Counted from the stretch's first letter, positions 9,142 to 26,935 are shown. The stretch: DNA of 64,000 nucleotides from Escherichia coli (GCF_011045215.1 NZ_CP049201.1); one strand, 5' to 3'. The notes: generated by a model not told the origin, from the sequence alone. Numbers and translations are program-made.

Positions 9142-11664
9142 TTATGCCGGTAACTCCGGGGGTAATGCTTCTTCCAGCCGGTTAACCATATTGCCGAGAT
9201 GGGATGCATCATATTCCATGACGGGGCGTTGCCTGATGATACTGACCACCAGTGGTTTGATTAACATATTGGTCGCGGCCCGTTGTTGTATACCGGCGGC
9301 GAAAATGATCTCCAGAGCATTCTGATCGATAACACGGGCCAGATTCGCGTTCAGATTTTCTGTTTCATGTCCGGTCAGCAGGAAACTGCCGGCAAGCCAT
9401 GTCACCTGTTCCTGAATCATTGCCAGAATTTTGACGCGATCTTCTTCAACCAGCGCTCCGGCAATTTTTCCTGATACAGCGGAGGCAATCATTCCCCCCA
9501 GAACACCGCCAACCACACGCCCTGTCAGTGCACCAAATGGTCCCAGTGGACTGAACAGTATCCCGCCCGCCACTGACCCGACAGCTCCACCTGCCACACC
9601 GGAAGATGCCACGGCAAGATTCCTGATGAACTGCGTACCGGAGATCCGTCCCCGCAACATTTTGATCATGTCAGGGCCGGTTGTGACAGCTACCAGTGCC
9701 AGAGATGTCACCAGCGTACCCTTCATCACTTTGTTCAGGGCACTGATATTTCCTGCACCGGTCCCCTTCTGAAGAGCCAGTCGGACAGTCGGGCTGGCAG
9801 TCGAAAAATCAATGTGCTTCAGCATACCCTGAACAACACTGAGCCGGTGGAGTTGCTGGGTTGTGACGTAGACAGCCAGTGTGCGGGTGAAGGTTTTTCC
9901 TGCCTGGACAGCAGCTGTCTGCAGAGCAGCATCGCGATCGCCGGTGCTGAGCCAGAAGACCGATGCCGTCAGGGCAAAACTGATCCCTCCGGCCGCCAGA
10001 CTGACAACCGAACCCTCGGCAATATCATAAGTGACCGATTCGATGGTCCCGAACCGGGTGATATTACGGGCCTGAGTATAAGTCAGATGTCCCCGACGAA
10101 TCAGCCGGGACGCTTCTGCGGGATCGATTACACCGGGTACTTTACCTTCGCGGATCTTATTCCTCATGGTTTCAACAGCGCCGGCATACTGATCACGGGG
10201 GACTTCCAGTTGCATGGGGCCATTATTTCCCATGTAACGATACTGTCCGTTTTGTCCGTCGAATGCCGCACCGACGCTACGGGCTGCAGTTGAACAATAT
10301 TTCGTCTGGATTTCTGTTCCGCTGACCAGTCTGTCTGCTCCATTTCTGGCATTATTATCACCGAGGATCCGTGCGTTTTTCAGACGGATTCTGTCGACAA
10401 TATGGTTTCCCCGTTCAGCGGCAAACCCATGTCCCTGCCCTCCGGAAGCAAACATTTTCTCATTTGTACTCCAGGTTTCCGGCAGTTTCATGAGAATCAG
10501 ACCATTCGCCGTTGCATCGGAAATAAAACTGTTGTAGGGGCGTTCATAAATTTCCTGACACAGTGTTTCTGTTTCGCGACAAAGAGAGGAGCAGTACCAT
10601 TCCGGATCCGGCTTATGATTTTCCGGGGCATGATGTACTTCTGTCAGCCCGCAGGAGGCACAGACACGAAGCTCATCCACGTGATGGAATGATACAAAAC
10701 GGCGACCTTCTGAAAAGGGATACCAGTCACCGCCGTCCAGGCAACGATCGAGAAAATCGTCATTCGCTTCCGGTGATAAATTCAGGCGGTTCCGGAAGAG
10801 TGTTTTCAGTTCATCAGGTGTGAATGACAGGTTCTCTTTCAACTGTTCGTTAAACCCTGCCATGTTTCTTTCATACCAGGCATTGTTCAGTAACCAGTTT
10901 CCGTCTGCCAGTTCAAATTCCCTCAGCTCTCCCCGGGAAATCCGTTGAGAAATAAGCGTCAGCCAGATGCGCTCCGTCAGTGAGTCAGGAAGGCTGTAAT
11001 CGTTTTGCAAACTGGTCAGCCACGATTTACTGTTGAGCACCGGTTGTTCTTCCAGTGTCTGGCTGATGGCACAGGTCAGTTTTTTCAGCGCCTGGATTTG
11101 GCTGGCCGCCCATAGCAGCGTCACTAATGCAGCCAGCCAGTACAACAACCCGCCCCACCACATCAGTGACGGTGAAATATCGTACTGTAACGCGATCAAT
11201 GGTGCGCATGCAGAACAAGCCATAAGGAAAAAGGCAGTATAAAAACAGCAGTAATATCCGTTAATTTCCTTGCTGATATCTTCTGGTGTGATCCCGTTCT
11301 GCTGAATGTTTTTGATCTGCAGGGGAACAGCCAGCAGACCACCGGCGAGAGCGGTGGTCAGAATAAATTTCACGGAGTCAAAGGTGTGAGACTCCAGCGC
11401 AATATGTTTACCATCAAGTCCCCACATGAAGCTGATGATCATTCCGGCAATCGTCAGAAATACGCCTGCCAGCCAGCGAATATGGAACAACCGGGTTATG
11501 CGTTCGGTGATATAGCCAGCCAGTAAGGCCGGGCCGAACAGACACAGCAATATGAGCCCTGCCAGCGCAGAAGCCGTGCTGATTAATGCTCTGAACAAAA
11601 GGCGAAGAATGGCAAATCCTGCGATCAGCAGGATCAGCGCGCCGACTATCTGTAACATAGTCAC
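9142..11664 (-). CDS. Large inner-membrane protein (YeeR-like by position), 840 aa
   Basis: N-terminal ~200 aa with multiple hydrophobic helices, central cysteine-containing soluble region, C-terminal glycine-rich hydrophobic segment; immediately downstream of the Ag43 gene. Confidence 0.6.
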   Translation of the reverse strand: MTMLQIVGALILLIAGFAILRLLFRALISTASALAGLILLCLFGPALLAGYITERITRLFHIRWLAGVFLTIAGMIISFMWGLDGKHIALESHTFDSVKFILTTALAGGLLAVPLQIKNIQQNGITPEDISKEINGYYCCFYTAFFLMACSACAPLIALQYDISPSLMWWGGLLYWLAALVTLLWAASQIQALKKLTCAISQTLEEQPVLNSKSWLTSLQNDYSLPDSLTERIWLTLISQRISRGELREFELADGNWLLNNAWYERNMAGFNEQLKENLSFTPDELKTLFRNRLNLSPEANDDFLDRCLDGGDWYPFSEGRRFVSFHHVDELRVCASCGLTEVHHAPENHKPDPEWYCSSLCRETETLCQEIYERPYNSFISDATANGLILMKLPETWSTNEKMFASGGQGHGFAAERGNHIVDRIRLKNARILGDNNARNGADRLVSGTEIQTKYCSTAARSVGAAFDGQNGQYRYMGNNGPMQLEVPRDQYAGAVETMRNKIREGKVPGVIDPAEASRLIRRGHLTYTQARNITRFGTIESVTYDIAEGSVVSLAAGGISFALTASVFWLSTGDRDAALQTAAVQAGKTFTRTLAVYVTTQQLHRLSVVQGMLKHIDFSTASPTVRLALQKGTGAGNISALNKVMKGTLVTSLALVAVTTGPDMIKMLRGRISGTQFIRNLAVASSGVAGGAVGSVAGGILFSPLGPFGALTGRVVGGVLGGMIASAVSGKIAGALVEEDRVKILAMIQEQVTWLAGSFLLTGHETENLNANLARVIDQNALEIIFAAGIQQRAATNMLIKPLVVSIIRQRPVMEYDASHLGNMVNRLEEALPPELPA

Positions 11665-14999: not shown

Positions 15000-15872
15000 T
15001 CAGAAGAAAATCCAGTTCCATACCGCACGGGCAACAGAGACCACCGTGTCACGAACAGCGCGCAGGGCCGTACGGACAACAGAGGCAACACAGACGCTCT
15101 CCGCTGTGTCAAATATCCGGTCCACCGCACCGGTAAACTGTTCACGGGCCTGAGAGCGGACAGATTCCGTGCGCAGCTCGTCCTGCAGTCGGGTCATCAG
15201 GGGACTGGCGGCATGGTCGGGAAGCGCTGTCATGAGCGCACTGACCAGCGTATCCAGTTCCCAGCCGGTGCGGGCCGATACGGCCACAACCGGATGTGCG
15301 GGCCGGAACAGACGGAATACCGCCTCCGTTTTTTCGCGAATGTTCCGTGCCTGTGCGGGAGAGGGCTGAATGCCGGCCATATCCCATTCATGGCAGGGCT
15401 CCGTTTTGTCGGCCTGCGTCACCACAAACAGCACCTGCTGATGTCCCCGGTGCAGGATGTGTCGCCAGAAATACTCATCCACAGACAAGGCACGGTCATC
15501 GGCTTTAATCAGCCACAGTACCAGGTCCAGTTCAGGCAGAATGTCACGGTACAGGGCTTCATACTCTGCATCCCTGTCCCGACTCTCGCCCACCCCGGGC
15601 AGGTCAGTAATAACCATGCTGTGACCGTGGCCACTCAGACGGAAGCGCCGCACTTCCCGGGTGCCGGCGTGAACATCACTGACCGGTGTGACCTCTCCCT
15701 GAAACAGGGCATTACAGAGTGAGGATTTACCGGCCCCGCTTTTCCCCATAATGCCAATCACGGGTTCGTGACTGGTGAGTTTGCGCAGATGTTCCAGGAT
15801 GTGACGGGAAAGTGAGTAAGGCAGGGAGGAGAGCGGTTTTTCAATTGCCTCAATGGCATCAGACGGATTCAT
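15000..15872 (-). CDS. YeeP/YkfA-family GTPase
   Basis: P-loop GIMGKSGAGKSS and G-domain motifs; 290 aa from MNPSDAIEAIEK...; upstream of the Ag43 gene as in CP4-44. Confidence 0.8.
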   Translation of the reverse strand: MNPSDAIEAIEKPLSSLPYSLSRHILEHLRKLTSHEPVIGIMGKSGAGKSSLCNALFQGEVTPVSDVHAGTREVRRFRLSGHGHSMVITDLPGVGESRDRDAEYEALYRDILPELDLVLWLIKADDRALSVDEYFWRHILHRGHQQVLFVVTQADKTEPCHEWDMAGIQPSPAQARNIREKTEAVFRLFRPAHPVVAVSARTGWELDTLVSALMTALPDHAASPLMTRLQDELRTESVRSQAREQFTGAVDRIFDTAESVCVASVVRTALRAVRDTVVSVARAVWNWIFF

Positions 15873-16087
15873 ACATGTATTCCCGGTGAAAAAAGACAAA
15901 ACCCCGCGCACCGGAAAAGTGGCGGGGGACTCACGGAGATAATATCTGCCTAAAATTATTTGGAATGCAGGTATATGCAGCTAATTTGTATCGGCTCATT
16001 AGTACAGAACTAAACCTCATCTGACAGTCCGCTCTGTGCCAAGAGCGGACTTTGCAAAATGGGGGTTATTTCAATCAAAACGTAACG

Positions 16088-17032
16088 TCACAACCAGCCG
16101 ACGCTCTCTCGCCATTTATAATTAGTAACTTTATCATTTTCGCTTATTTTTTTAGATATAGAGCGCGGCTCTCTTCCTAGATACTCAGATATTTCTATCG
16201 GGGACAAATCAAAATCGACAAGCATGACTCTAAGTTTTTCCATTTCCTTTAAAGTCCAAGGCTTGCCATAATTTTCATAAAGAGATACCTTATGCTCCCT
16301 GATAGTTCGCTTTCTCTGAGTTTCACTTTCCCTCTGAAAAATCTCGCTTTTAAATTGTGAACGGAACTCTTTACAGAAGTTGTTATCAGTTTTTTTGTTA
16401 TATAGATTGCTAAAAATAAGCTGGGATGCCGGGTCTAAATCAGGTGTGTTAATAATGAAAACTTTGACCTTTTCCATATAGGGATATTCAATTTTACCCA
16501 ATATGCTTAATTGCTTTATATTAAAAAAACCTCTCAAATCAAAAGATTTAATGAGCTTTGATTGGATTACACTTTCAATCCTGCTTGCATTTGAATAACA
16601 GTACTTTGCCATTGGAAGGGCCCATACTACCAGTTGAGGAATATATTTTTCTAATGCAATGCTCTGCCAATCAGTATCAAAGGTTTGGCTTTTTGCTAGC
16701 ATGTTTTTCGGCAAATCAGAATACATTGTGGTAGATGCCCATATCTTATAATCATTCGCCAAGGCTTGATAGTATTTTGTGTGGTTATGAATTTTATAAG
16801 CTGACATGAAGCGATAAACGTCTTCGTCGTGACCAGCGTCGTAAATTGTTCGATTTCCTCTAAGATAACCGTCGTAATGTTCGGTTATCCTTCTACCTAC
16901 ATTACAACTTACCCCAACGTAAACCACACGACTGAAAAGTCCTTTATGGACAATAAGATAAACTCCGCTACAGCCAGATTTCCTGGCCTCTGATAGAGAA
17001 CCTAAAAATCTCCATTCCATAATTAAATCCAT
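16088..17032 (-). CDS. GIY-YIG nuclease-domain protein, AT-rich, otherwise uncharacterised
   Basis: N-terminal GVYLIVHKGLFSRVVYVGVSCNVGRRITEHY resembles the GIY-YIG catalytic motif; low GC and Asn/Lys/Ile-rich; start uncertain (ATG at 17032 or 17020). Confidence 0.55.
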   Translation of the reverse strand: MDLIMEWRFLGSLSEARKSGCSGVYLIVHKGLFSRVVYVGVSCNVGRRITEHYDGYLRGNRTIYDAGHDEDVYRFMSAYKIHNHTKYYQALANDYKIWASTTMYSDLPKNMLAKSQTFDTDWQSIALEKYIPQLVVWALPMAKYCYSNASRIESVIQSKLIKSFDLRGFFNIKQLSILGKIEYPYMEKVKVFIINTPDLDPASQLIFSNLYNKKTDNNFCKEFRSQFKSEIFQRESETQRKRTIREHKVSLYENYGKPWTLKEMEKLRVMLVDFDLSPIEISEYLGREPRSISKKISENDKVTNYKWRESVGWL

Positions 17033-17494
17033 AATTATTGCTACTGTTTTTGTTTATCATTATTTTCGTGAAACTTCAACAATTTTATCCAAAAGCTAAG
17101 GGCAAAGACTTATATAATTATACTTGTCATCGTTAGCGATTATATAGAGTAGTGGCGCTGACCTGCTCCCTGGTGATTCACACAGAATGCTGTTAGTAAT
17201 GTCCGTTCCTCGCTCAAAGCAGACCATTCGCTCAGTTAACGCATCAGTGTCGTGCTAAAAGTAGACGTGGTTAACAACAATGTGAGTTAATCAACGGAGA
17301 GCAGGTCAACTCTAACCTGTATCAAAAAAACAAATGTGTCACAAAGATGCCGCATGCCTTAATTTGAGTATAATTGAGACGGAAGTAGACGGTTTATGGC
17401 TAAATATTGTTGATATATAGCTATTTGAAGAGTTGTAGCGCAAGTGTATAGCCCAAACTAATAACGCTACGCCCCTTACCTTTGACGCGTCTTA

Positions 17495-17803
17495 TCAAAG
17501 AGCGGCGATGATGCACAGCCCGCACGAGGCAATATTCGCACAAGAATCAGGTTCAGAAATAACCTGATCTGGCATGGTGGGGAGAGTATCACTGAGCAGG
17601 CTTTCGGTAAAATGCGGCGGGATGAGGTCGGCGTGGGTTGCAGCAGTACAATGTCGCCCGCAGAGGGTAAGCCACAGCGCGGGATCCTCGGTTTCTATCA
17701 GGGATTCGACGAAGTGGGCGCAGTTGTCGACCAAGGCGGTGAAATCCATAGTGACATTATAAGGAAACGAACAATAGATCGAGTAAATCGCAGTCAGGGA
17801 CAA
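17495..17803 (-). CDS. Hypothetical ORF (weak)
   Basis: 102-aa ORF in intergenic space; no recognisable motif. Confidence 0.2.
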   Translation of the reverse strand: MSLTAIYSIYCSFPYNVTMDFTALVDNCAHFVESLIETEDPALWLTLCGRHCTAATHADLIPPHFTESLLSDTLPTMPDQVISEPDSCANIASCGLCIIAAL

Positions 17804-18024
17804 GGATTGTAGTCATAGAGAAGTCTCCTGTAACGGTTTTCAGGAAGCTAATCCCGACGCCTGATTTTGCAGGCGCGGAAGGAGAAGATACTGCGGCCAT
17901 TAATCCGCCACAAGGCATTTACGTGCATAAATCGCGCAGTCAAATCCGACTCCCACTGTAGTTCTTGAACCTGATACCACATTTAGCTAATTTAGCTAAC
18001 TTATCTATTATACCAGTGGTTGCC

Positions 18025-18309: not shown

Positions 18310-20748
18310 ATGGCTATCAAAAAAACCGAACTCTATTCTTCCCTGTGGGCAAGCTGCGACGAACTGCGTGGCGGGATGGACGCCAGCCAGTACAAAGACT
18401 ATGTACTGACCCTGCTGTTTATGAAGTACGTTTCCGATAAGTATAAAGGCGATCCTTACGGGATGATCGTGATACCCAAAGGAGCCAGCTTTGACGATAT
18501 GGTTGCGCTGAAAAATGACAAAGAGATCGGCGACAAAATCAACAAAATCATCCACAAGCTGGCGGAAGAGAACGGCCTGAAGGGCGTCATCGACGAAGCC
18601 GACTTTAACGACGAAGATAAGCTCGGCAAAGGCAAGGAAATGATTGACCGCCTGAGCAAGCTTGTCGGTATCTTTGAAGGGTTAAATCTCTCCAGCAACC
18701 GGGCCGAAGGCGACGATCTGCTGGGCGATGCCTATGAATATCTGATGCGTCACTTCGCAACCGAATCCGGTAAGAGTAAAGGGCAGTTTTACACTCCAGC
18801 GGAGGTGTCACGTATTCTGGCGAAGGTGATTGGTATTACTCCCGATACTCCGCAAGATGCAACGGTTTATGACCCAACCTGTGGCTCTGGTTCGCTGCTG
18901 TTGAAAGTGAATGATGAAGCCCGGCGCGGACTGTCGATTTTCGGCCAGGAGATGGATAACGCTACCAGTGCGCTGGCGCGGATGAACATGATTCTGCATA
19001 ACAATGCCACCGCGAAAATCTGGCAGGGCAATACGCTGAGCGATCCGCAGTGGAAAGAGGCGAACGGCAAACTGAAAGCCTTCGATTTTGCCGTGGCGAA
19101 CCCGCCTTTTTCCAATAAAAACTGGACCAACGGGCTGACGCCGAAAAAAGATCCGTTTGAACGCTTCGGCTGGGGTATTCCGCCGGAAAAAAACGGCGAT
19201 TATGCTTTTTTGTTGCATATCATTAAAAGCCTGAAAAGTACCGGCAAAGGCGCGGTGATCCTGCCCCACGGCGTACTGTTTCGCGGTAACGCCGAAGCGA
19301 ATATCCGTGAAAATCTAATCAAGCAGGGCTATATCAAAGGCGTTATTGGTTTGCCAGCCAACCTGTTTTACGGCACCGGCATCCCGGCGTGCATCATTGT
19401 GATTGATAAAGAGCACGCCCACAGCCGCAAAGGCATTTTTATGATCGACGCCAGCCGGGGCTTTATCAAAGATGGCAACAAGAACCGCCTGCGTAGCCGA
19501 GATATTCACCGCATTGTGGACGTGTTCAACCATCAGCGAACGGTACCTGGCTACAGCCGGATGGTGCCCTCCAGCGAGATCGCCGGAAATGATTACAACC
19601 TGAATATTCCTCGCTATATCGAGAGCGGCGAGCCGGAAGATTTACACGATCTGACCGCGCACTTACAGGGCGGTATTCCGGCACGCGATGTGGATGCTTT
19701 GCAAGATTACTGGCGGGTATTCCCTGCCCTGCGCAACGTGCTGTTTGCTGACGACCGTCCCGGTTACTGTCGGGCGCAGGTGAACGCGCAACAGGTGAAA
19801 CCGACCATTCTGGCGCATCAGGAGTTTAAGGATTTTGCCACCCGCAGCCTGCTACCGTTTAAAGCGTGGGTGAAAGAGGCAAGTCTGGAAGAGATTCGCA
19901 AAGGTGATAAACCCAAAGCGCTAATCCACGATATCAGCGAAATGCTATTGGCGCAGTACGCCAACAGTGAGTTGCTGAACAAATACAGCGTGTACCAGAT
20001 CCTGATGGATTACTGGACTGATGTCATGCAAGACGATGTGTATGCGATTATGCAGGATGGCTGGCAAGCCGCCGCGCAAATCCGCGAGCTTCAGCCGGTG
20101 AAAGGCAAAGATGGCAAAAACATCTGGAAAGAAACGCACGATTTCGAGTTTACCAAACGGCGCTACAAGGCCGATGTGCTGCCCCGTTCGCTGGTGGAAA
20201 TTCGCTGTTTCCCGGAACTGCTGGATGCGCTGAACCGCGCGCAGGAGCGCAGTGAAGAAGCCAGTCGTCAGCTAGTGGAATTCATCGAGGAGCAGGCAGG
20301 TGAAGAGGATCTGCTGGCCGAGGCGAAGAACGATAAAGATAAGGTGACGCAAAAGCTGGTGAATGCCCGTCTAGCACAGTTAAAGAAAACCACTGCCGGC
20401 CCAGATGAGCTGGCAGTGCTGAACCGCTGCCTGGCGCTAATTAAGGCCGAAGCCAGTGCGAAAAAAGCGCTGAAAGCCGCACAAGAAGCGCTGGATCGGG
20501 CGGTGTTTAAACATTATCCCACGCTGGATGAAGCAGCGATTAAAACGCTGGTAGTGCAGGATAAGTGGCTGGCAACGTTGCAGGCAGGGATCAAGGCGGA
20601 GATTGAGCGTATTACCCAGCAACTGGCGTCGCGCGTAAAGGAGCTGGAAGAGCGTTATGCTGAACCGTTGCTAGCGCTTGAAGCCTCCGTTGAGGCGTTG
20701 AGCGAGAAAGTGGCCGGGCATTTGCGGGCGATGGGGCTGGAGTGGTGA
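18310..20748 (+). CDS. hsdM: Type I restriction-modification methyltransferase subunit HsdM (long form, 812 aa)
   Basis: AdoMet motif DPTCGSGSLL and catalytic NPPF; long coiled-coil C-terminal extension; stop overlaps hsdS start. Confidence 0.9.
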   Translation: MAIKKTELYSSLWASCDELRGGMDASQYKDYVLTLLFMKYVSDKYKGDPYGMIVIPKGASFDDMVALKNDKEIGDKINKIIHKLAEENGLKGVIDEADFNDEDKLGKGKEMIDRLSKLVGIFEGLNLSSNRAEGDDLLGDAYEYLMRHFATESGKSKGQFYTPAEVSRILAKVIGITPDTPQDATVYDPTCGSGSLLLKVNDEARRGLSIFGQEMDNATSALARMNMILHNNATAKIWQGNTLSDPQWKEANGKLKAFDFAVANPPFSNKNWTNGLTPKKDPFERFGWGIPPEKNGDYAFLLHIIKSLKSTGKGAVILPHGVLFRGNAEANIRENLIKQGYIKGVIGLPANLFYGTGIPACIIVIDKEHAHSRKGIFMIDASRGFIKDGNKNRLRSRDIHRIVDVFNHQRTVPGYSRMVPSSEIAGNDYNLNIPRYIESGEPEDLHDLTAHLQGGIPARDVDALQDYWRVFPALRNVLFADDRPGYCRAQVNAQQVKPTILAHQEFKDFATRSLLPFKAWVKEASLEEIRKGDKPKALIHDISEMLLAQYANSELLNKYSVYQILMDYWTDVMQDDVYAIMQDGWQAAAQIRELQPVKGKDGKNIWKETHDFEFTKRRYKADVLPRSLVEIRCFPELLDALNRAQERSEEASRQLVEFIEEQAGEEDLLAEAKNDKDKVTQKLVNARLAQLKKTTAGPDELAVLNRCLALIKAEASAKKALKAAQEALDRAVFKHYPTLDEAAIKTLVVQDKWLATLQAGIKAEIERITQQLASRVKELEERYAEPLLALEASVEALSEKVAGHLRAMGLEW

Positions 20749-22088
20749 TGGTGGATTTAATGGTGAATGAGCAACGGTCGAGTACGGCGGGGAAAGATGT
20801 GCCTGCGGGGTATAAACTGACTGAGGTGGGCGTGATTCCTGAGGATTGGGATTGCGTACCATTTGGTAATCTGTTTAAAACAAACACAAAGAAAAAAAAA
20901 GTCAGCGATTATGAGCTAGTTTCATTTATTGGGATGCAGGATGTTAGTGAAGATGCACAATTAAAAAATAATACTCAACTTCCTTTTAAAGAAGTTAAAA
21001 GTGGTTTTACTTACTTTGAAAAAGGGGATGTTTTATTAGCTAAAATAACCCCTTGTTTTGAAAATGGAAAAGGATGTCATACCGCTGATTTACCTACTAA
21101 TGTAGGTTTTGGGAGTACGGAATTTCATGTATTAAGGGAAAATGAAGACTCCGATTCTCGCTTCATCTATTTTTGGACAACTGATAAAAAATTCAGAGCA
21201 TCACTGGAATCTGAAATGGTGGGAAGTGCGGGACACCGTCGTGTGCCGCTAGTTGCTATAGAAAAATATTTGATTCCATGTCCCCCAAATTTGCAAGAGC
21301 AAAGTGCTATTGCTGATTCATTATCTGATATTAATAATTTTATTCTAGCTCTAGAAAAGCTTATCGTTAAAAAACAAGCCATTAAAACCGCTACTATGCA
21401 GCAACTACTGACGGGTAAAACCCGTTTGCCACAGTTTGCGTTACGCAAAGATGGCTCTGCTAAGGGATATAAAAAGAGCGAGTTGGGGGCGATTCCTGAA
21501 GATTGGGTAGTCACAAGCATTGGACAATTTACTGACTGCTGTGCTGGTGGAACTCCGAGTACTAAAATTTCAGCATATTGGGGAGGAACTCATCCTTGGA
21601 TGAGTTCCGGCGAATTACACTTAAAACAAGTGTATGCTGTAGCCGATTATATAACCGACGAAGGGCTTGTTAACTCCAGTACAAAGTATGTGCCTAAAAA
21701 TTCTGTATTAGTCGGATTGGCAGGACAAGGAAAGACTCGAGGGACTGTAGCAATTAATCGCATTGAATTATGTACTAATCAGTCTATTGCTGCGATTTTC
21801 CCCAGCAAACATCATTCCACAGAATTCCTGTTCTATAACCTCGACAGTCGTTATGAGGAACTGAGAAGTTTATCTACTGGTGATGGGGGGCGTGGTGGGT
21901 TGAATCTTACTATTATCAGGAAATTACATCTTGCATTTCCGCCAAAAGAAGAACAAGCCGCCATCGCCGCCATCCTCTCCGATATGGACAAGGAAATCCA
22001 GATCCTGCAACAGCGTCTGGACAAAACCCGCCAGCTTAAGCAAGGGATGATGCAGGAACTGTTAACCGGGAAAATCCGCTTAATATAG
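20748..22088 (+). CDS. hsdS: Type I R-M specificity subunit HsdS
   Basis: Two target-recognition-domain architecture with conserved central and C-terminal repeats (LLTGKTRLP / LLTGKIRL); ATG overlaps hsdM TGA (ATGA). Confidence 0.85.
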   Translation: MVDLMVNEQRSSTAGKDVPAGYKLTEVGVIPEDWDCVPFGNLFKTNTKKKKVSDYELVSFIGMQDVSEDAQLKNNTQLPFKEVKSGFTYFEKGDVLLAKITPCFENGKGCHTADLPTNVGFGSTEFHVLRENEDSDSRFIYFWTTDKKFRASLESEMVGSAGHRRVPLVAIEKYLIPCPPNLQEQSAIADSLSDINNFILALEKLIVKKQAIKTATMQQLLTGKTRLPQFALRKDGSAKGYKKSELGAIPEDWVVTSIGQFTDCCAGGTPSTKISAYWGGTHPWMSSGELHLKQVYAVADYITDEGLVNSSTKYVPKNSVLVGLAGQGKTRGTVAINRIELCTNQSIAAIFPSKHHSTEFLFYNLDSRYEELRSLSTGDGGRGGLNLTIIRKLHLAFPPKEEQAAIAAILSDMDKEIQILQQRLDKTRQLKQGMMQELLTGKIRLI

Positions 22089-22100
22089 AAGGGAAAGCAC

Positions 22101-22757
22101 ATGGCTTATGATTACAGCGCCAGCCTCAACCCGCAAAAAGCTCTGATCTGGCGTATCGTCCATCGGGACAATATCCCGTGGATTCTGGATAACGGGCTGC
22201 ACTGCGGCAACAGTCTGGTGCAGGCGGAAAACTGGATCAATATCGGCAACCCGGAGCTGATCGGCAAGCGTGCCGGGCATCCGGTACCTGTCGGAACGGG
22301 CGGGACACTGCATGACTATGTGCCGTTTTATTTTACCCCCTTCTCGCCAATGCTGATGAACATCCACAGCGGGCGCGGCGGCATTAAGCAACGCCCCAAT
22401 GAGGAGATCGTTATTCTGGTCAGCAACTTGCGGAACGTGGCAGCACACGACGTGCCCTTCGTGTTTACCGACAGCCATGCTTACTATAACTGGACCAACT
22501 ACTACACCAGTCTGAATAGTCTGGACCAGATCGACTGGCCCATTTTGCAGGCACGGGACTTTCGCCGCGATCCAGACGATCCGGCTAAATTTGAACGCTA
22601 TCAGGCAGAGGCGCTAATCTGGCAACACTGCCCGATCTCTCTGCTGGATGGGATAATTTGTTACAGCGAAGAGGTCAGGTTACAATTAGAGCAATGGCTG
22701 TTTCAGCGTAATCTAACAATGTCCGTTCACACACGGGCTGGATGGTACTTCTCATGA
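22101..22757 (+). CDS. darT: DarT-like DNA ADP-ribosyltransferase toxin (DUF4433)
   Basis: 218-aa ORF immediately followed by a macrodomain gene with overlapping stop/start; family call from recalled DUF4433 features. Confidence 0.7.
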
Positions 22758-23821
22758 TCACATATACACAAGGCAATTTACTGGACGCACCGGTGGAAGC
22801 TCTGGTGAATACGGTTAATACCGTCGGTGTCATGGGGAAAGGCATCGCGTTGATGTTTAAAGAGCGCTTCCCCGAAAATATGAAAGTCTATGCCCTCGCT
22901 TGCAAACAAAAGCAGGTGATCACCGGCAAAATGTTCATTACCGAAACCGGGGAACTGATGGGACCGCGCTGGATTGTTAATTTTCCGACCAAACAGCACT
23001 GGCGCGCTGATTCCCGCATGGAGTGGATTGAAGATGGCTTGCAGGACTTACGCCGCTTTTTGATTGAAGAGAACGTGCAGTCCATCGCCATTCCACCACT
23101 GGGCGCAGGCAACGGTGGTTTGAACTGGCCGGACGTTCGGGCGCAGATTGAATCTGCCCTTGGCGACCTTCAGGACGTTGATATCCTGATTTACCAACCG
23201 ACTGAAAAATACCAGAACGTTGCCAAAAGCACTGGCGTAAAAAAGCTCACTCCCGCCAGAGCCGCCATCGCTGAACTGGTGCGTCGCTACTGGGTATTGG
23301 GGATGGAGTGCAGCCTACTGGAAATCCAGAAACTGGCCTGGCTGTTACAACGCGCCATTGAGCAGCATCAACAGGACGATATCCTCAAACTGCGGTTTGA
23401 AGCTCACTATTATGGCCCCTATGCGCCCAATCTGAACCATCTGCTTAATGCGCTGGACGGCACCTATCTAAAAGCCGAGAAACGCATCCCGGACAGCCAA
23501 CCGCTGGATGTGATCTGGTTTAACGATCAAAAAAAAGAACACGTTAATGCGTATCTGAACAACGAAGCCAGAGAGTGGCTACCTGCGCTGGAGCAGGTCA
23601 GCCAGTTAATTGACGGCTTTGAATCGCCGTTTGGTCTGGAGTTGCTGGCAACCGTAGACTGGTTGCTGAGCCGTGGCGAATGTCAACCAACGCTGGATTC
23701 CGTTAAGGAAGGACTGCACCAGTGGCCTGCGGGCGAACGCTGGGCCAGCCGTAAGTTGAGGCTGTTTGATAATAATAATCTGCAATTTGCCATTAACCGC
23801 GTAATGGAGTTCCATTGCTGA
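22754..23821 (+). CDS. darG: DarG-like macrodomain antitoxin
   Basis: N-terminal macrodomain signature ([36 protein letters not shown]) plus C-terminal extension; ATG overlaps darT TGA; alternative in-frame ATG at 22742. Confidence 0.75.
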
Positions 23822-23839
23822 GGGTTTAAGGAGCGCCTT

Positions 23840-26800
23840 TTGAGTACCGTGGGCCAGCGCGAACGCGCCACACAGCAGCGTCTGATTCAGTTTTTTGTTG
23901 AAGATTTAGGATACCGCCATCTGAGTCACCGCACCGGGTACACCGGGAACAGCAACATCGACACTAATATACTGAGCGCGTGGCTAAAACGGCGCGGCGT
24001 TAATGATACGTTGATCACCCGGGCGTTGCGGCAACTGGATTCCGCCGCCGCCCTGGGCGAAGGCAAAAAACTCTATTACGCCAATAAAGAGGTCTATCGC
24101 CTGCTGCGTTACGGCGTGAAAGACAAAGAAGGTGCAGGCGAGCAGAACCAAACCGTGTGGCTGATTGACTGGGCCAACCCACAAGCCAATGATTTCGCCA
24201 TCGCCGATGAGGTGACGGTCAAAGGCGAGTACTGCAAGCGCCCGGATCTGGTGCTGTACGTTAACGGCATTGCGCTGGGCGTGATTGAACTTAAGCGTTC
24301 GTCAGTGCACGTCAGCGAAGGTATCCGGCAGAATCTCGATAATCAAAAGAAAACCTTTATCCGCGATTTCTTCACCACTATGCAGTTAGTGATGGCAGGC
24401 AACGATACGCAGGGCCTGCGCTACGGCACCATCGAAACCCCGGAAAAATACTATCTGGAGTGGAAAGAAGATAATCCAGGCGACTATACACATAAACTCG
24501 ACTTTCATTTAAGTCGTCTGTGTAGCAAATCCAGGCTGTTGGATATCGTCCATAATTACATTGTCTTTGATGTCGGGGTGAAAAAACTCTGCCGCCATAA
24601 TCAGTTCTTCGGCGTCGAGGCGGCTAAGCAACATATTGCCCGTCGTGAAGGCGGTATTATCTGGCACACACAGGGATCGGGTAAAAGCCTGACGATGGTC
24701 TGGCTGGCGAAGTGGATCCGTGAAAATGTGCCAAACTCCCGCGTGTTGATTGTGACTGACCGCACCGAACTGGATGAACAGATCGAAAGCGTGTTTATGG
24801 GCGTGAATGAAGATATTTATCGCACCTCCAGCGGCAACGATCTTATCGCAACGCTCAATCATCCTAACCCGTGGCTTATTTGCTCGCTGGTGCATAAATT
24901 TGGTTGTCGCAGCGAAGCTGAAGACAATGCGGCTACCGACGCCTTTATCACCGAATTACAGCAGTCCCTGACGAAAACATTCCGCGCCAAAGGCGATCTG
25001 TTTGTTTTTGTGGACGAGTGCCACCGCACACAATCCGGCAAGCTGCATAACGCCATGACTGCCATTCTGCCGGACGCCCTGTTTATCGGTTTTACCGGCA
25101 CACCGCTGATGAAGAAAGATAAGAAGAAGTCGGTTGAGGTGTTCGGCCCTTATATCCATACCTATAAATTTGATGAAGCGGTGGCCGACGGTGTGGTGCT
25201 GGATCTGCGCTACGAGGCGCGCGATATTGACCAGTATCTGACATCAGAGAAAAAGGTCGATGACTGGTTTGAAGCCAAGACTCGCGGTTTGTCGAATTTA
25301 GCCAGGACCCAGCTTAAGCAAAAGTGGGGATCAATGCAGAAGCTGCTCTCCAGCAAGTCGCGGCTGGAGCAGATCGTTAACGACATTTTGCTGGATATGG
25401 ATACCCGTCCACGCCTGATGGACGGGCGCGGCAACGCCATGCTGGTATGCAGCAGTATCTATCAAGCCTGCAAGGTTTACGAGATGTTCAGCCAGACCGA
25501 GCTGGCAGGAAAAGTAGCGATTGTGACCAGCTATCGCCCCGATGCCGCCAGCATCAAAGGCGAAGAAACGGGCGAAGGGTTAACGGAGAAACTCTCTAAA
25601 CACGCCACCTATCGTAAAATGTTGGCTGACTATTTTGAACAAAGTGAAGAGAAGGCCGCCGCACGCATTACCGAGTTCGAGCGGGAAGTGAAACAACGTT
25701 TTATTGAAGAGCCGGGGCAAATGCGCCTGCTTATCGTGGTGGACAAGCTGTTGACTGGCTTTGACGCGCCGTCCGCCACCTATCTCTACATTGATAAAAC
25801 CATGACCGACCATACGCTGTTTCAGGCGATTTGTCGGGTGAACCGGCTGGACGGTGAGGATAAAGAGTATGGCTATATTATCGATTATAAAGATCTGTTC
25901 CGTTCGCTGGATAAAGCGATTACCGATTACACCACGGGCGCGTTTGATGATTACGATCGGGACGATGTGGCCGGGTTGCTGAAAGACAGGCTGGAGCAGG
26001 CGCAACTGGATCTCGACAGCGCGCTGGAGATGGTTCGCAGCTTATGTGAGCCCGTCAAAACCCCGCGCAGCCTGCAGGACTATCAGCACTATTTTTGCGG
26101 TAAATCAGGAGAGAATCAGACTTCGTTAAACGAAAAAGAGGCGCTGCGCCTGACATTTTACCAGTGCGTCGCCCGTCTGCTACGCGCTTATGCCAGCATC
26201 GCCAATGAAATGCCGGAAGCAGGCTACACTGCCGAAGAGGTAGAGAGCATTCGCGCCGAAGTCGCTGAATTCGAAAAACTGCGCTATGAGATTAAGCTGA
26301 CCAGCGGCGATCTTCTGGATATGAAGCGCTTTGAACCCGCTATGCGTCATTTACTGGATATGTATGTTCGCGCCGATGGTAGCGAAGTGCTGATGGATTT
26401 TGAAGAGTTAAGTCTGATTGAACTGATTGTCGAGAAAGGCTTGGCGGCGACCGTCGCCCTGCCGGATGATATCCGTAATAATCAGGATGCGATGGCGGAA
26501 ACCATCGAAAACAACGTGCGCAAAACCATCGTGGATGAAAACCCGGTTAACCCAAAATACTATGGACGCATGTCGCAGCTGCTGGATGAACTGATTACCC
26601 TTCGCCGACAAAATGCGCTCAATTATCAGCAGTATCTGGAACGTATCCGCGATTTGTGTAAACAGGTCATCCGCCCGGAGCAAACCGCCGGAGCGTGCTA
26701 CCCTGCCACCATGGATACACAAGCAAAGCGCGCCTTCTATGACAACTTCGGCCACGACGAGGTACTGGCGACCCGCATAGATACGACAATTCGCTATACC

Positions 26801-26935
26801 AAAAGGGCAGAGTGGATTGGCGATCGTTTTAAAGAACGGGAAATTGCCAACGCATTACGTGAAGAGACCGCCAGCTATAATATTGATATTGATGAGGTGA
26901 TAGCGCTTGCCCGTCAGCAGAAGGAATATCACTGA
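23840..26935 (+). CDS. hsdR: Type I restriction endonuclease subunit HsdR (1031 aa)
   Basis: SF2 helicase motifs (HTQGSGKSLTM Walker A, VFVDECHR DEAH-box); TTG start 7 nt after AAGGAG. Confidence 0.9.
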   Translation: MSTVGQRERATQQRLIQFFVEDLGYRHLSHRTGYTGNSNIDTNILSAWLKRRGVNDTLITRALRQLDSAAALGEGKKLYYANKEVYRLLRYGVKDKEGAGEQNQTVWLIDWANPQANDFAIADEVTVKGEYCKRPDLVLYVNGIALGVIELKRSSVHVSEGIRQNLDNQKKTFIRDFFTTMQLVMAGNDTQGLRYGTIETPEKYYLEWKEDNPGDYTHKLDFHLSRLCSKSRLLDIVHNYIVFDVGVKKLCRHNQFFGVEAAKQHIARREGGIIWHTQGSGKSLTMVWLAKWIRENVPNSRVLIVTDRTELDEQIESVFMGVNEDIYRTSSGNDLIATLNHPNPWLICSLVHKFGCRSEAEDNAATDAFITELQQSLTKTFRAKGDLFVFVDECHRTQSGKLHNAMTAILPDALFIGFTGTPLMKKDKKKSVEVFGPYIHTYKFDEAVADGVVLDLRYEARDIDQYLTSEKKVDDWFEAKTRGLSNLARTQLKQKWGSMQKLLSSKSRLEQIVNDILLDMDTRPRLMDGRGNAMLVCSSIYQACKVYEMFSQTELAGKVAIVTSYRPDAASIKGEETGEGLTEKLSKHATYRKMLADYFEQSEEKAAARITEFEREVKQRFIEEPGQMRLLIVVDKLLTGFDAPSATYLYIDKTMTDHTLFQAICRVNRLDGEDKEYGYIIDYKDLFRSLDKAITDYTTGAFDDYDRDDVAGLLKDRLEQAQLDLDSALEMVRSLCEPVKTPRSLQDYQHYFCGKSGENQTSLNEKEALRLTFYQCVARLLRAYASIANEMPEAGYTAEEVESIRAEVAEFEKLRYEIKLTSGDLLDMKRFEPAMRHLLDMYVRADGSEVLMDFEELSLIELIVEKGLAATVALPDDIRNNQDAMAETIENNVRKTIVDENPVNPKYYGRMSQLLDELITLRRQNALNYQQYLERIRDLCKQVIRPEQTAGACYPATMDTQAKRAFYDNFGHDEVLATRIDTTIRYTKRAEWIGDRFKEREIANALREETASYNIDIDEVIALARQQKEYH

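Follow-up and report, generated by a model that had tools for sequence, protein, structure and literature searches.

Introduction

Single-gene defence systems built on a GIY-YIG nuclease have been described in bacteria, namely PD-T4-3/CMoRE, PD-Lambda-1 and Uzume (PMC12923530; bioRxiv 10.1101/2024.10.26.620412), and we compare these and other GIY-YIG enzymes here with a gene at positions 16088-17032 of a 64,000-nucleotide stretch of an Escherichia coli genome (GCF_011045215.1, NZ_CP049201.1; the whole stretch is called the window below). CMoRE, which is identical to PD-T4-3, is a type IV restriction enzyme that restricts phage DNA containing 5-hydroxymethylcytosine (5hmC) or glucosyl-5hmC, and is characterised by a GIYxY-YIG motif with a third tyrosine and by a modification-sensing C-terminal domain (PMC12923530). 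Odn of Vibrio phage ICP1 combines a nuclease with a sequence-specific DNA-binding domain and reportedly gives immunity against a rival element (PMC8263062). A different use of the fold is seen in the Ssn nucleases, which cleave the hairpin-forming repeats that flank their own genes (PMC11893778).

Like the homing enzymes I-TevI, I-BmoI and T4 Seg, the protein studied here consists of a catalytic domain, a linker and a separate DNA-binding domain. Unlike them, it has an insertion of ~75 amino acids (aa) inside the nuclease domain, and its DNA-binding domain is SANT/Myb-like, whereas theirs is a zinc finger, a minor-groove helix or a NUMOD helix-turn-helix. The gene also differs from homing genes in that it lies neither in an intron nor in a phage genome and has no fixed insertion site. 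Like CMoRE, it is found in the accessory DNA of E. coli and does without a methyltransferase, but its motif reads GVYLI rather than GIYxY (Ile or Leu family-wide at the third position) and its C-terminal domain is Myb-like; the PADLOC model of PD-T4-3 gave no match at E ≤ 1, and that of PD-Lambda-1 gave none. As in Uzume (UzuA), PD-Lambda-1 and PDC-S14, a GIY-YIG motif is found in a single-gene defence system or candidate, and PDC-S14 is of similar length (301-320 aa). The matches to PDC-S14 and UzuA, however, cover ~30-55 motif residues only (E 6e-6 to 0.0075), fall at another profile position and do not extend to homology outside the motif. The likeness seen to Odn, which is phage-encoded, is one of concept. 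Unlike a type II restriction-modification (R-M) system with an Eco29kI-type GIY-YIG endonuclease, the gene has no conserved adjacent methyltransferase.

The family is known already under the database label 'GIY-YIG nuclease family protein', and it is set apart from the named GIY-YIG defence and homing enzymes by its domain combination and its insertion. We consider it most likely, at about even chances, that the gene is a tethered, partner-free and sequence-directed endonuclease carried as cargo, which acts on phage or rival mobile DNA and gives its carrier defence or exclusion.

Results and Discussion

A predicted GIY-YIG nuclease joined to a Myb-like domain

The gene and the parts of its product are as follows.

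16088..17032, minus strand, GIY-YIG gene, 314-aa open reading frame (ORF) with the start MDLIMEWRFLG
16508..16975, minus strand, GIY-YIG nuclease core, residues ~20-175
16280..16351, minus strand, long charged α-helix that links the nuclease to the DNA-binding domain, residues 228-251 (a helix in the model, poorly conserved in sequence)
16091..16267, minus strand, SANT/Myb-like three-helix DNA-binding domain, residues 256-314

A preliminary description, made from the sequence alone, had noted a plausible GIY-YIG motif at the N-terminus of this ORF followed by ~230 residues with no recognisable domain. The motif was readily found in the protein (GVYLIVH...VVYVGVS...GRRITEH). The remainder of the protein turned out to be far from featureless, with a nuclease fold reaching to ~175 and including the ~75-aa insertion, then the linker helix and the SANT/Myb-like domain. 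These assignments were made on an AlphaFold model (predicted local distance difference test, pLDDT, 92; predicted template modelling score, pTM, 0.83) built from a family alignment of 25 members with identity down to 38%. In the model, two extra strands precede the GIY strand (23-30) and the YIG strand (34-42), so that the two motifs (G23-V24-Y25 and Y38-V39-G40) lie on adjacent β-strands near the N-terminus; these are followed by a helix carrying the Arg and His residues (45-57), the insertion (~58-133), strand 3 (134-140), the helix bearing E153 (146-164) and then N171. The nuclease module as a whole is predicted to span residues 1-~215, and after it come, as distinct parts, the long helix and the Myb-like domain with its three short helices (261-302). 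The predicted structure thus contains the α/β GIY-YIG fold, whose absence had been named as grounds for refuting the earlier description.

Across all 25 aligned proteins, Y25, Y38-V39-G40, R48, H52, E153 and N171 were invariant, as was a C-terminal set comprising G256, W259, E265, L267, R268, F274, R287, I296 and W307. Alignment with hhalign against I-TevI, whose sequence was checked against PDB entries 1mk0 and 1ln0, paired Y25 with Y6, Y38 with Y17, R48 with R27 and H52 with H31, and ended before E153 and N171. These two residues are likened to E75 and N90 of I-TevI on the basis of their invariance and the order and spacing of the structural elements, and not of superposition. The match to the Pfam GIY-YIG family (PF01541, clan CL0418) was weak for the query itself (E 0.017, residues 22-62) and reached E ≤ 1e-3 in 16 of the 25 members, while Myb_DNA-bind_6 matched weakly in four of them. 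Searches with the single sequence (Pfam, NCBIfam, PHROGs, PADLOC and PDB) yielded motif-level or chance matches only, and no solved structure in the PDB was matched by sequence. In the match table (score, then aligned residues), the N-terminal part was paired with the GIY-YIG domain of GrxS16 (6.2, 91), Eco29kI (5.8, 100) and the I-TevI catalytic domain (5.7, 79 aligned residues in a chain of 92), and the C-terminal part with the SANT domain of Bdp1 (7.4, 63), Reb1 (7.3, 95), the DNA-binding domain of GcrA (7.3, 44) and several Myb proteins (6-6.7). On the predicted structure, the N-terminal part has the GIY-YIG fold with the canonical catalytic residues, and the C-terminal domain is Myb-like.

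A rare family under purifying selection

A word-indexed search of 5.8 billion proteins gave 72 homologue clusters, nearly all of them full length at 309-317 aa, from Enterobacterales, Aeromonas, Vibrio, Photobacterium, Pseudoalteromonas, Thalassotalea and Undibacterium (Gamma- and Betaproteobacteria). The main cluster comprises about 1,400 sequences. When 1.84 billion representatives were searched exhaustively with HMMER, only 62 homologues came up, many of ~200-230 aa and covering residues 5-210 only. The relatives in AFDB50 were all uncharacterised 'GIY-YIG domain-containing' proteins. Where synonymous substitutions were unsaturated, the ratio of nonsynonymous to synonymous substitution rates (dN/dS) in pairwise comparisons with homologues was 0.07-0.17. 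Because of the 72 clusters, these dN/dS values and the confident AlphaFold model, the ORF is judged to be beyond chance, and it is a genuine gene under purifying selection. The equivalent of M5 (window 17020) is the start codon in most homologues, and for this reason the true product may be of 310 aa rather than 314 aa.

The nuclease module (residues 5-210) stands alone in many of the ~200-230-aa homologues, and in one 515-aa homologue (P0099) it is fused to DUF5677 in place of the Myb-like domain. Since the module occurs both by itself and with this other partner, the recognition domain appears, from these sequences, to be exchangeable. The fusion partners were considered as clues to function and set aside, as both DUF5677 in P0099 and the N-terminal extension in P0074 were uninformative.

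The distribution of the gene is patchy. It is encoded in just 16 of 100,044 species-representative genomes and, within E. coli, in 288 of 5,426 complete genomes (~5%) at ≥99% identity, including clinical lineages. A set of 50,697 phage genomes contained no homologue. Among 2.9 million viral contigs the gene was found in only 7, six of these encoding a protein 99-100% identical to the E. coli one; a phage-borne homing family was rejected on these counts. The GC content of the gene was 33-41% whatever the host, and in the window (GC 0.492) the ORF had a value of 0.364, compared to 0.581 for the neighbouring yeeP-like GTPase gene and 0.530 for hsdM, so that the low GC content noted at the outset was confirmed.

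This distribution bears on another reading, in which the protein merely retains a GIY-YIG-like fold and acts as a DNA-binding regulator without catalysis, or as a housekeeping factor of repair or recombination. Myb/SANT domains are typical of regulators, and the gene is tolerated at plain chromosomal sites where no immunity partner is visible. The six canonical catalytic positions, however, are invariant family-wide, the gene is rare and patchy in both species representatives and E. coli, and a housekeeping role is disfavoured because GC is low in every host and the gene is carried on mobile elements. We regard this reading as a whole as very unlikely.

A ~1.2 kb unit that moves without partners

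Comparison with other genomes defined a unit that extends beyond the ORF on both sides.

16027..17236, minus strand, whole unit of ~1.2 kb, 90-99% identical in unrelated contexts (blastn against loci L015, L016, L021, L023, L024-L027 and L030)
17033..17236, minus strand, 5' non-coding part, presumed promoter region, AT-rich; homology with other contexts stops at 17216-17241
17144-17139 and 17122-17117, two TATAAT hexamers in the 5' non-coding part, by direct reading of the sequence
17201..17224, degenerate palB-type 24-mer (GTCCGTTCCTCGCTCAAAGCAGAC) at the unit's 5' boundary
16027..16050, palA, perfect 24-nt palindrome GTCCGCTCT-GTGCCA-AGAGCGGAC, 37 nt past the stop codon

A consensus scan of the gene strand of the 5' region found no full sigma-70 match. 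In pairwise blastn comparisons between genomes, including two Kosakonia species, only 1.0-1.25 kb around the gene was shared, and more than 12 unrelated contexts had nothing in common but the unit. Clustering of the ORFs within 7 kb in 25 contexts revealed no conserved partner besides integrases, and no adjacent conserved methyltransferase; the hsdM of the window belongs to a type I system that is missing from most other contexts.

The carriers are diverse. In E. coli, the gene was found in a Rac/Qin-like prophage, in the slot right after the DUF977 replication-region gene (L021), and in another CP4-like island (L023). Plasmid carriers included an IncFIA plasmid, a Serratia plasmid and a Photobacterium conjugative plasmid. 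The gene was also present on an integrative and conjugative element (ICE) in Brenneria, on a mobilisable island in Salmonella, downstream of guaA in Aeromonas and in a variable region in Undibacterium. The homologue of Vibrio parahaemolyticus, at 61% identity, is a single-gene cassette of the chromosomal integron, with attC-type repeats at 9479-9607 and 10554-10684 of locus L010 and 12 repeat copies in 9.5 kb; such a cassette of one gene speaks for a gene that works without a partner. The copy in the window differs from an integron cassette, having no attC cores at its 3' hairpin. We conclude that the GIY-YIG gene is autonomous, mobile and partner-free. The earlier view of it as a standalone gene and as cargo is thus well founded, and its homologues do not sit mainly in housekeeping contexts, with plain chromosome in only 2 of ~20 contexts.

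The edges of the unit look like generic cargo junctions

palA occurs once in the 64-kb window, compared to 0.01 matches expected by chance, and forms the 3' edge of the unit, with breakpoints of homology at 16027 in L021, L023, L024, L025 and L026. The edges at palA and palB hold among copies that are 90-99% identical in DNA. Elsewhere we found a two-hairpin intergenic element of ~66 nt, consisting of palB (GTCCGCTC-CTCGCTCA-GAGCGGAC), a spacer (CTTCAGCTCAGTGA..) and then palA, with 42 nt from the start of palB to the start of palA; such pairs separate one cargo gene from the next in E. coli, Citrobacter, Salmonella diarizonae and Serratia. The elements located outside the window are as follows.

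L021 11114-11179, palA/palB element
L023 9898-9963, palA/palB element
L026 9718-9783 and 7128-7194, palA/palB elements
L043 4156-4179 and 7368-7391, palA/palB elements

Sharp edges that coincide with 24-nt palindromes, together with the I-TevI-type layout of nuclease, linker and DNA-binding domain, would fit a selfish, free-standing gene of the homing endonuclease kind, which cuts 'empty' junctions such as palA/palB, is copied in by repair as the ~1.2 kb unit and spreads for itself. Such 'empty' junctions are indeed common: palA stood at the slot edge without the gene in 4 of 4 loci sampled (L043 and L044, where it precedes yeeP, and L045 and L046, where it follows DUF977), and the palA-bearing junction sequence upstream of yeeP was matched in 1,648 E. 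coli genomes, compared to 288 with the gene. The many unrelated contexts that share only the unit, two of them plain chromosomal, and the known pseudogenised copies also agree with homing. The palindrome, however, is intact beside the gene, and a carrier would therefore be cut by its own nuclease. The same boundary elements bound other cargo (PD-T7-1, HEC-08 and a 256-aa ORF), which makes the edges generic, and no flanking hairpins were found at the diverged homologues. The near absence from phage genomes and viral contigs, the strong purifying selection across distant genera, the score against TIGR01453 (intron-type GIY-YIG endonucleases) of 15.1 bits, below its cutoff of 56.05, and the mobilisation of the Vibrio copy by attC as an integron cassette all argue against homing. 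We consider it possible, though on balance unlikely.

The Ssn nucleases offer a second way to connect nuclease and hairpin. By analogy, the protein would recognise the flanking GTCCGC...GCGGAC hairpins, possibly as single-stranded DNA, and modulate recombination, transformation or cassette exchange there. In the E. coli-type lineage the gene does lie between palA and palB-type hairpins, as Ssn genes lie between their repeats, and additional hairpin copies are found nearby in Citrobacter, Salmonella diarizonae and Serratia. Unlike the Ssn repeats, which co-occur genome-wide with their gene, palA/palB is far more widespread than the gene: the two-hairpin pair was present in 276 Enterobacterales plasmid records, compared to 4 plasmid records with the gene, and the 1,648 genomes and four gene-less loci described above point the same way, as does the lack of flanking hairpins at diverged homologues. 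Ssn proteins are, in addition, single-domain proteins of ~94-150 aa (cd10448), whereas this one has 314 aa and a Myb-like domain. An Ssn-like role is very unlikely in our view.

The two-hairpin element bounds cargo in lambdoid prophages and CP4-like islands as well. The pair was also seen in a P2-like phage, between two cargo genes of the tail-fibre/sheath region, and beside an AbiU-like AIPR gene on an Enterobacter plasmid. Because other cargo shares these edges and diverged homologues lack them, the palA/palB hairpins look like generic cargo junctions and not like targets specific to this nuclease. They may be recombinase sites, repetitive extragenic palindromic (REP)-like elements or merely recombination-prone hairpins. 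Several other readings of the hairpins were rejected: the 3' hairpin is not an attC site (the RYYYAAC and GTTRRRY cores are missing) or a canonical intrinsic terminator (there is no T-run on the gene strand), the flanking hairpins are not a family-wide trait, and the element, being far commoner than the gene, is not specific to it.

On the Citrobacter youngae chromosome (L026 6510-14164), ten palA/palB-like 24-mers were counted in 21 kb, most within ~8 kb; those checked lay mostly between small accessory genes (GNAT acetyltransferases, LysE, an ars operon and an abhydrolase). This suggests that some chromosomes are rich in the repeat and that it is not limited to mobile elements.

The same variable slots contain a short tyrosine recombinase of 202 aa, invertase-sized and made up of the catalytic domain only. 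It is encoded by 848 of 5,426 E. coli genomes and is absent from the window.

L021 13154-13762, short tyrosine recombinase
L023 11129-11779, short tyrosine recombinase
L043 5721-6323, short tyrosine recombinase
L024 7072-7678, short tyrosine recombinase
L054-L057 4007-4609, short tyrosine recombinase

Its neighbours include HEC-08, DRT type 1, PDC-S71, PD-T7-1, dynamin-like genes and the GIY-YIG gene, and its presence may point to a defence hotspot. A broader proposal would make the GIY-YIG gene the founder of a single-gene defence family not described before, in which an enlarged GIY-YIG domain is combined with a Myb/SANT domain and which rides on an undescribed platform for cassette exchange. 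On this proposal, the ~66-nt palB-spacer-palA element would bound cargo that is exchanged among lambdoid prophages, CP4-like islands, plasmids and P2-like phages; the 202-aa recombinase of the same slots may carry out this exchange. We hold the proposal as a whole to be distinctly unlikely.

Defence genes in the same slots and a proposed function

The slots that hold the GIY-YIG gene also hold defence genes. In the E. coli prophage slot the adjoining cassette is PD-T7-1 (PADLOC E 7e-157), which was validated in a screen of the E. coli pangenome (PMC9519451), and in the clone D i2 island HEC-08 (E 1e-173) fills the equivalent slot, between the palindrome on the yeeP side and a short integrase. 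The gene adjoins a type I HsdR in Enterobacter sp. Bisph1, AbiH in Aeromonas and a Ppl-like ATPase on the Serratia plasmid, where PifA is two genes off. The Salmonella mobilisable island also carries Thoeris, and the Brenneria ICE also carries TerB, a BrxC-like ATPase and a DEAD helicase. The link with defence-rich slots is therefore clear but not universal. Of the earlier suggestion that the gene is 'possibly defensive', the association with defence genes stands, and the role itself we infer.

The proposed mechanism is as follows. A single polypeptide would join a GIY-YIG catalytic module, with its ~75-aa insertion, through a long helix to a SANT/Myb-type domain. Other modular GIY-YIG enzymes, I-TevI for example, provide the analogy for its action: the Myb-like domain would hold the protein at a given DNA sequence or feature, close to which the nuclease domain would cut. 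That the protein is a nuclease is suggested by the conserved residues and the modelled fold, and the tethered mode of cutting by the analogy. As a cargo module of ~1.2 kb, the gene would benefit its carrier through cleavage of DNA that arrives from phages or rival mobile elements, and the host would be spared if the recognised sequence or modification were absent from its DNA. The binding domain of Odn, for comparison, is reportedly related to the replication initiator of its target.

A number of observations weigh against a defensive cargo endonuclease. No mechanism that would spare self DNA is visible in the sequence, and PADLOC models gave no match past the ~40-residue GIY-YIG motif. At seven further loci, PADLOC found no match among the immediate neighbours, and in Kosakonia cowanii and Citrobacter youngae the gene occupies plain chromosomal sites with no defence genes nearby; the defence associations amount to a small, raw count. 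Decay of the gene is also fairly frequent: it is split by an IS903B insertion in E. coli 300444 (L002 6189-8199), contains internal stops in JNEC-KY171 (L023 10001-10945) and is truncated to ~200-aa forms in Klebsiella pneumoniae (P0040, P0042). Searches of the literature by RefSeq accession and by domain combination retrieved no paper on the family and no experimental evidence for it.

The locus in the window

As stated in the preliminary description, the 314-aa ORF lies between the yeeP-like gene and hsdM, beside an R-M/DarTG cluster. The neighbouring genes are as follows.

15000-15911, yeeP-like GTPase gene, to the left of the GIY-YIG gene
18310-20748, hsdM
20742-22088, hsdS
22101-22757, darT
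22742-23821, darG
23840-26935, hsdR

The GIY-YIG gene is within 1.3 kb of the type I R-M and DarTG genes. RefSeq records that share the same 1.6 kb name the product 'hypothetical protein' (WP_032171640.1) or 'GIY-YIG nuclease family protein', and place the locus in an integrative island at a tRNA-Ser gene, with the order cbtA/cbeA, yeeS/yeeT, Ag43, GTPase, GIY-YIG gene, hsdM, hsdS, darT, darG and hsdR. This arrangement was found in only 57 of the 288 gene-bearing E. coli genomes.

The type I R-M operon (window 18310-26935) is split by the DarTG toxin-antitoxin pair, and its hsdS has a low GC content of 0.41. Two sub-threshold Rfam matches coincide at 17815-17889 on the minus strand, in the spacer that separates the GIY-YIG unit from the helix-turn-helix-like gene preceding hsdM, and just upstream of a small ORF (17495-17803, minus strand): isrK (42.3 bits, gathering threshold 50, E 3.5e-7) and the c4 antisense-RNA target a1b1 (40.9 bits, gathering threshold 46.7, E 2.6e-8).

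Implications

In the libraries and papers that were searched, none of the named defence or homing families matched the combination of a GIY-YIG nuclease with a Myb/SANT domain. If the gene is protective, a compact, partner-free nuclease family would be added to the bacterial immune repertoire, and a tethered cutter of this kind could interest enzyme engineers. If the exchange platform is real, it would allow new defence genes to be sought in Enterobacterales by a sequence signature. The slot grammar around the gene, hairpin-bounded cargo beside a short tyrosine recombinase, may help in understanding the shuffling of single defence genes between unrelated mobile elements, and could be used as a marker in the discovery of more of them. 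Finally, carriage by ~5% of complete E. coli genomes, clinical lineages among them, could bear on the susceptibility of this species to phages.

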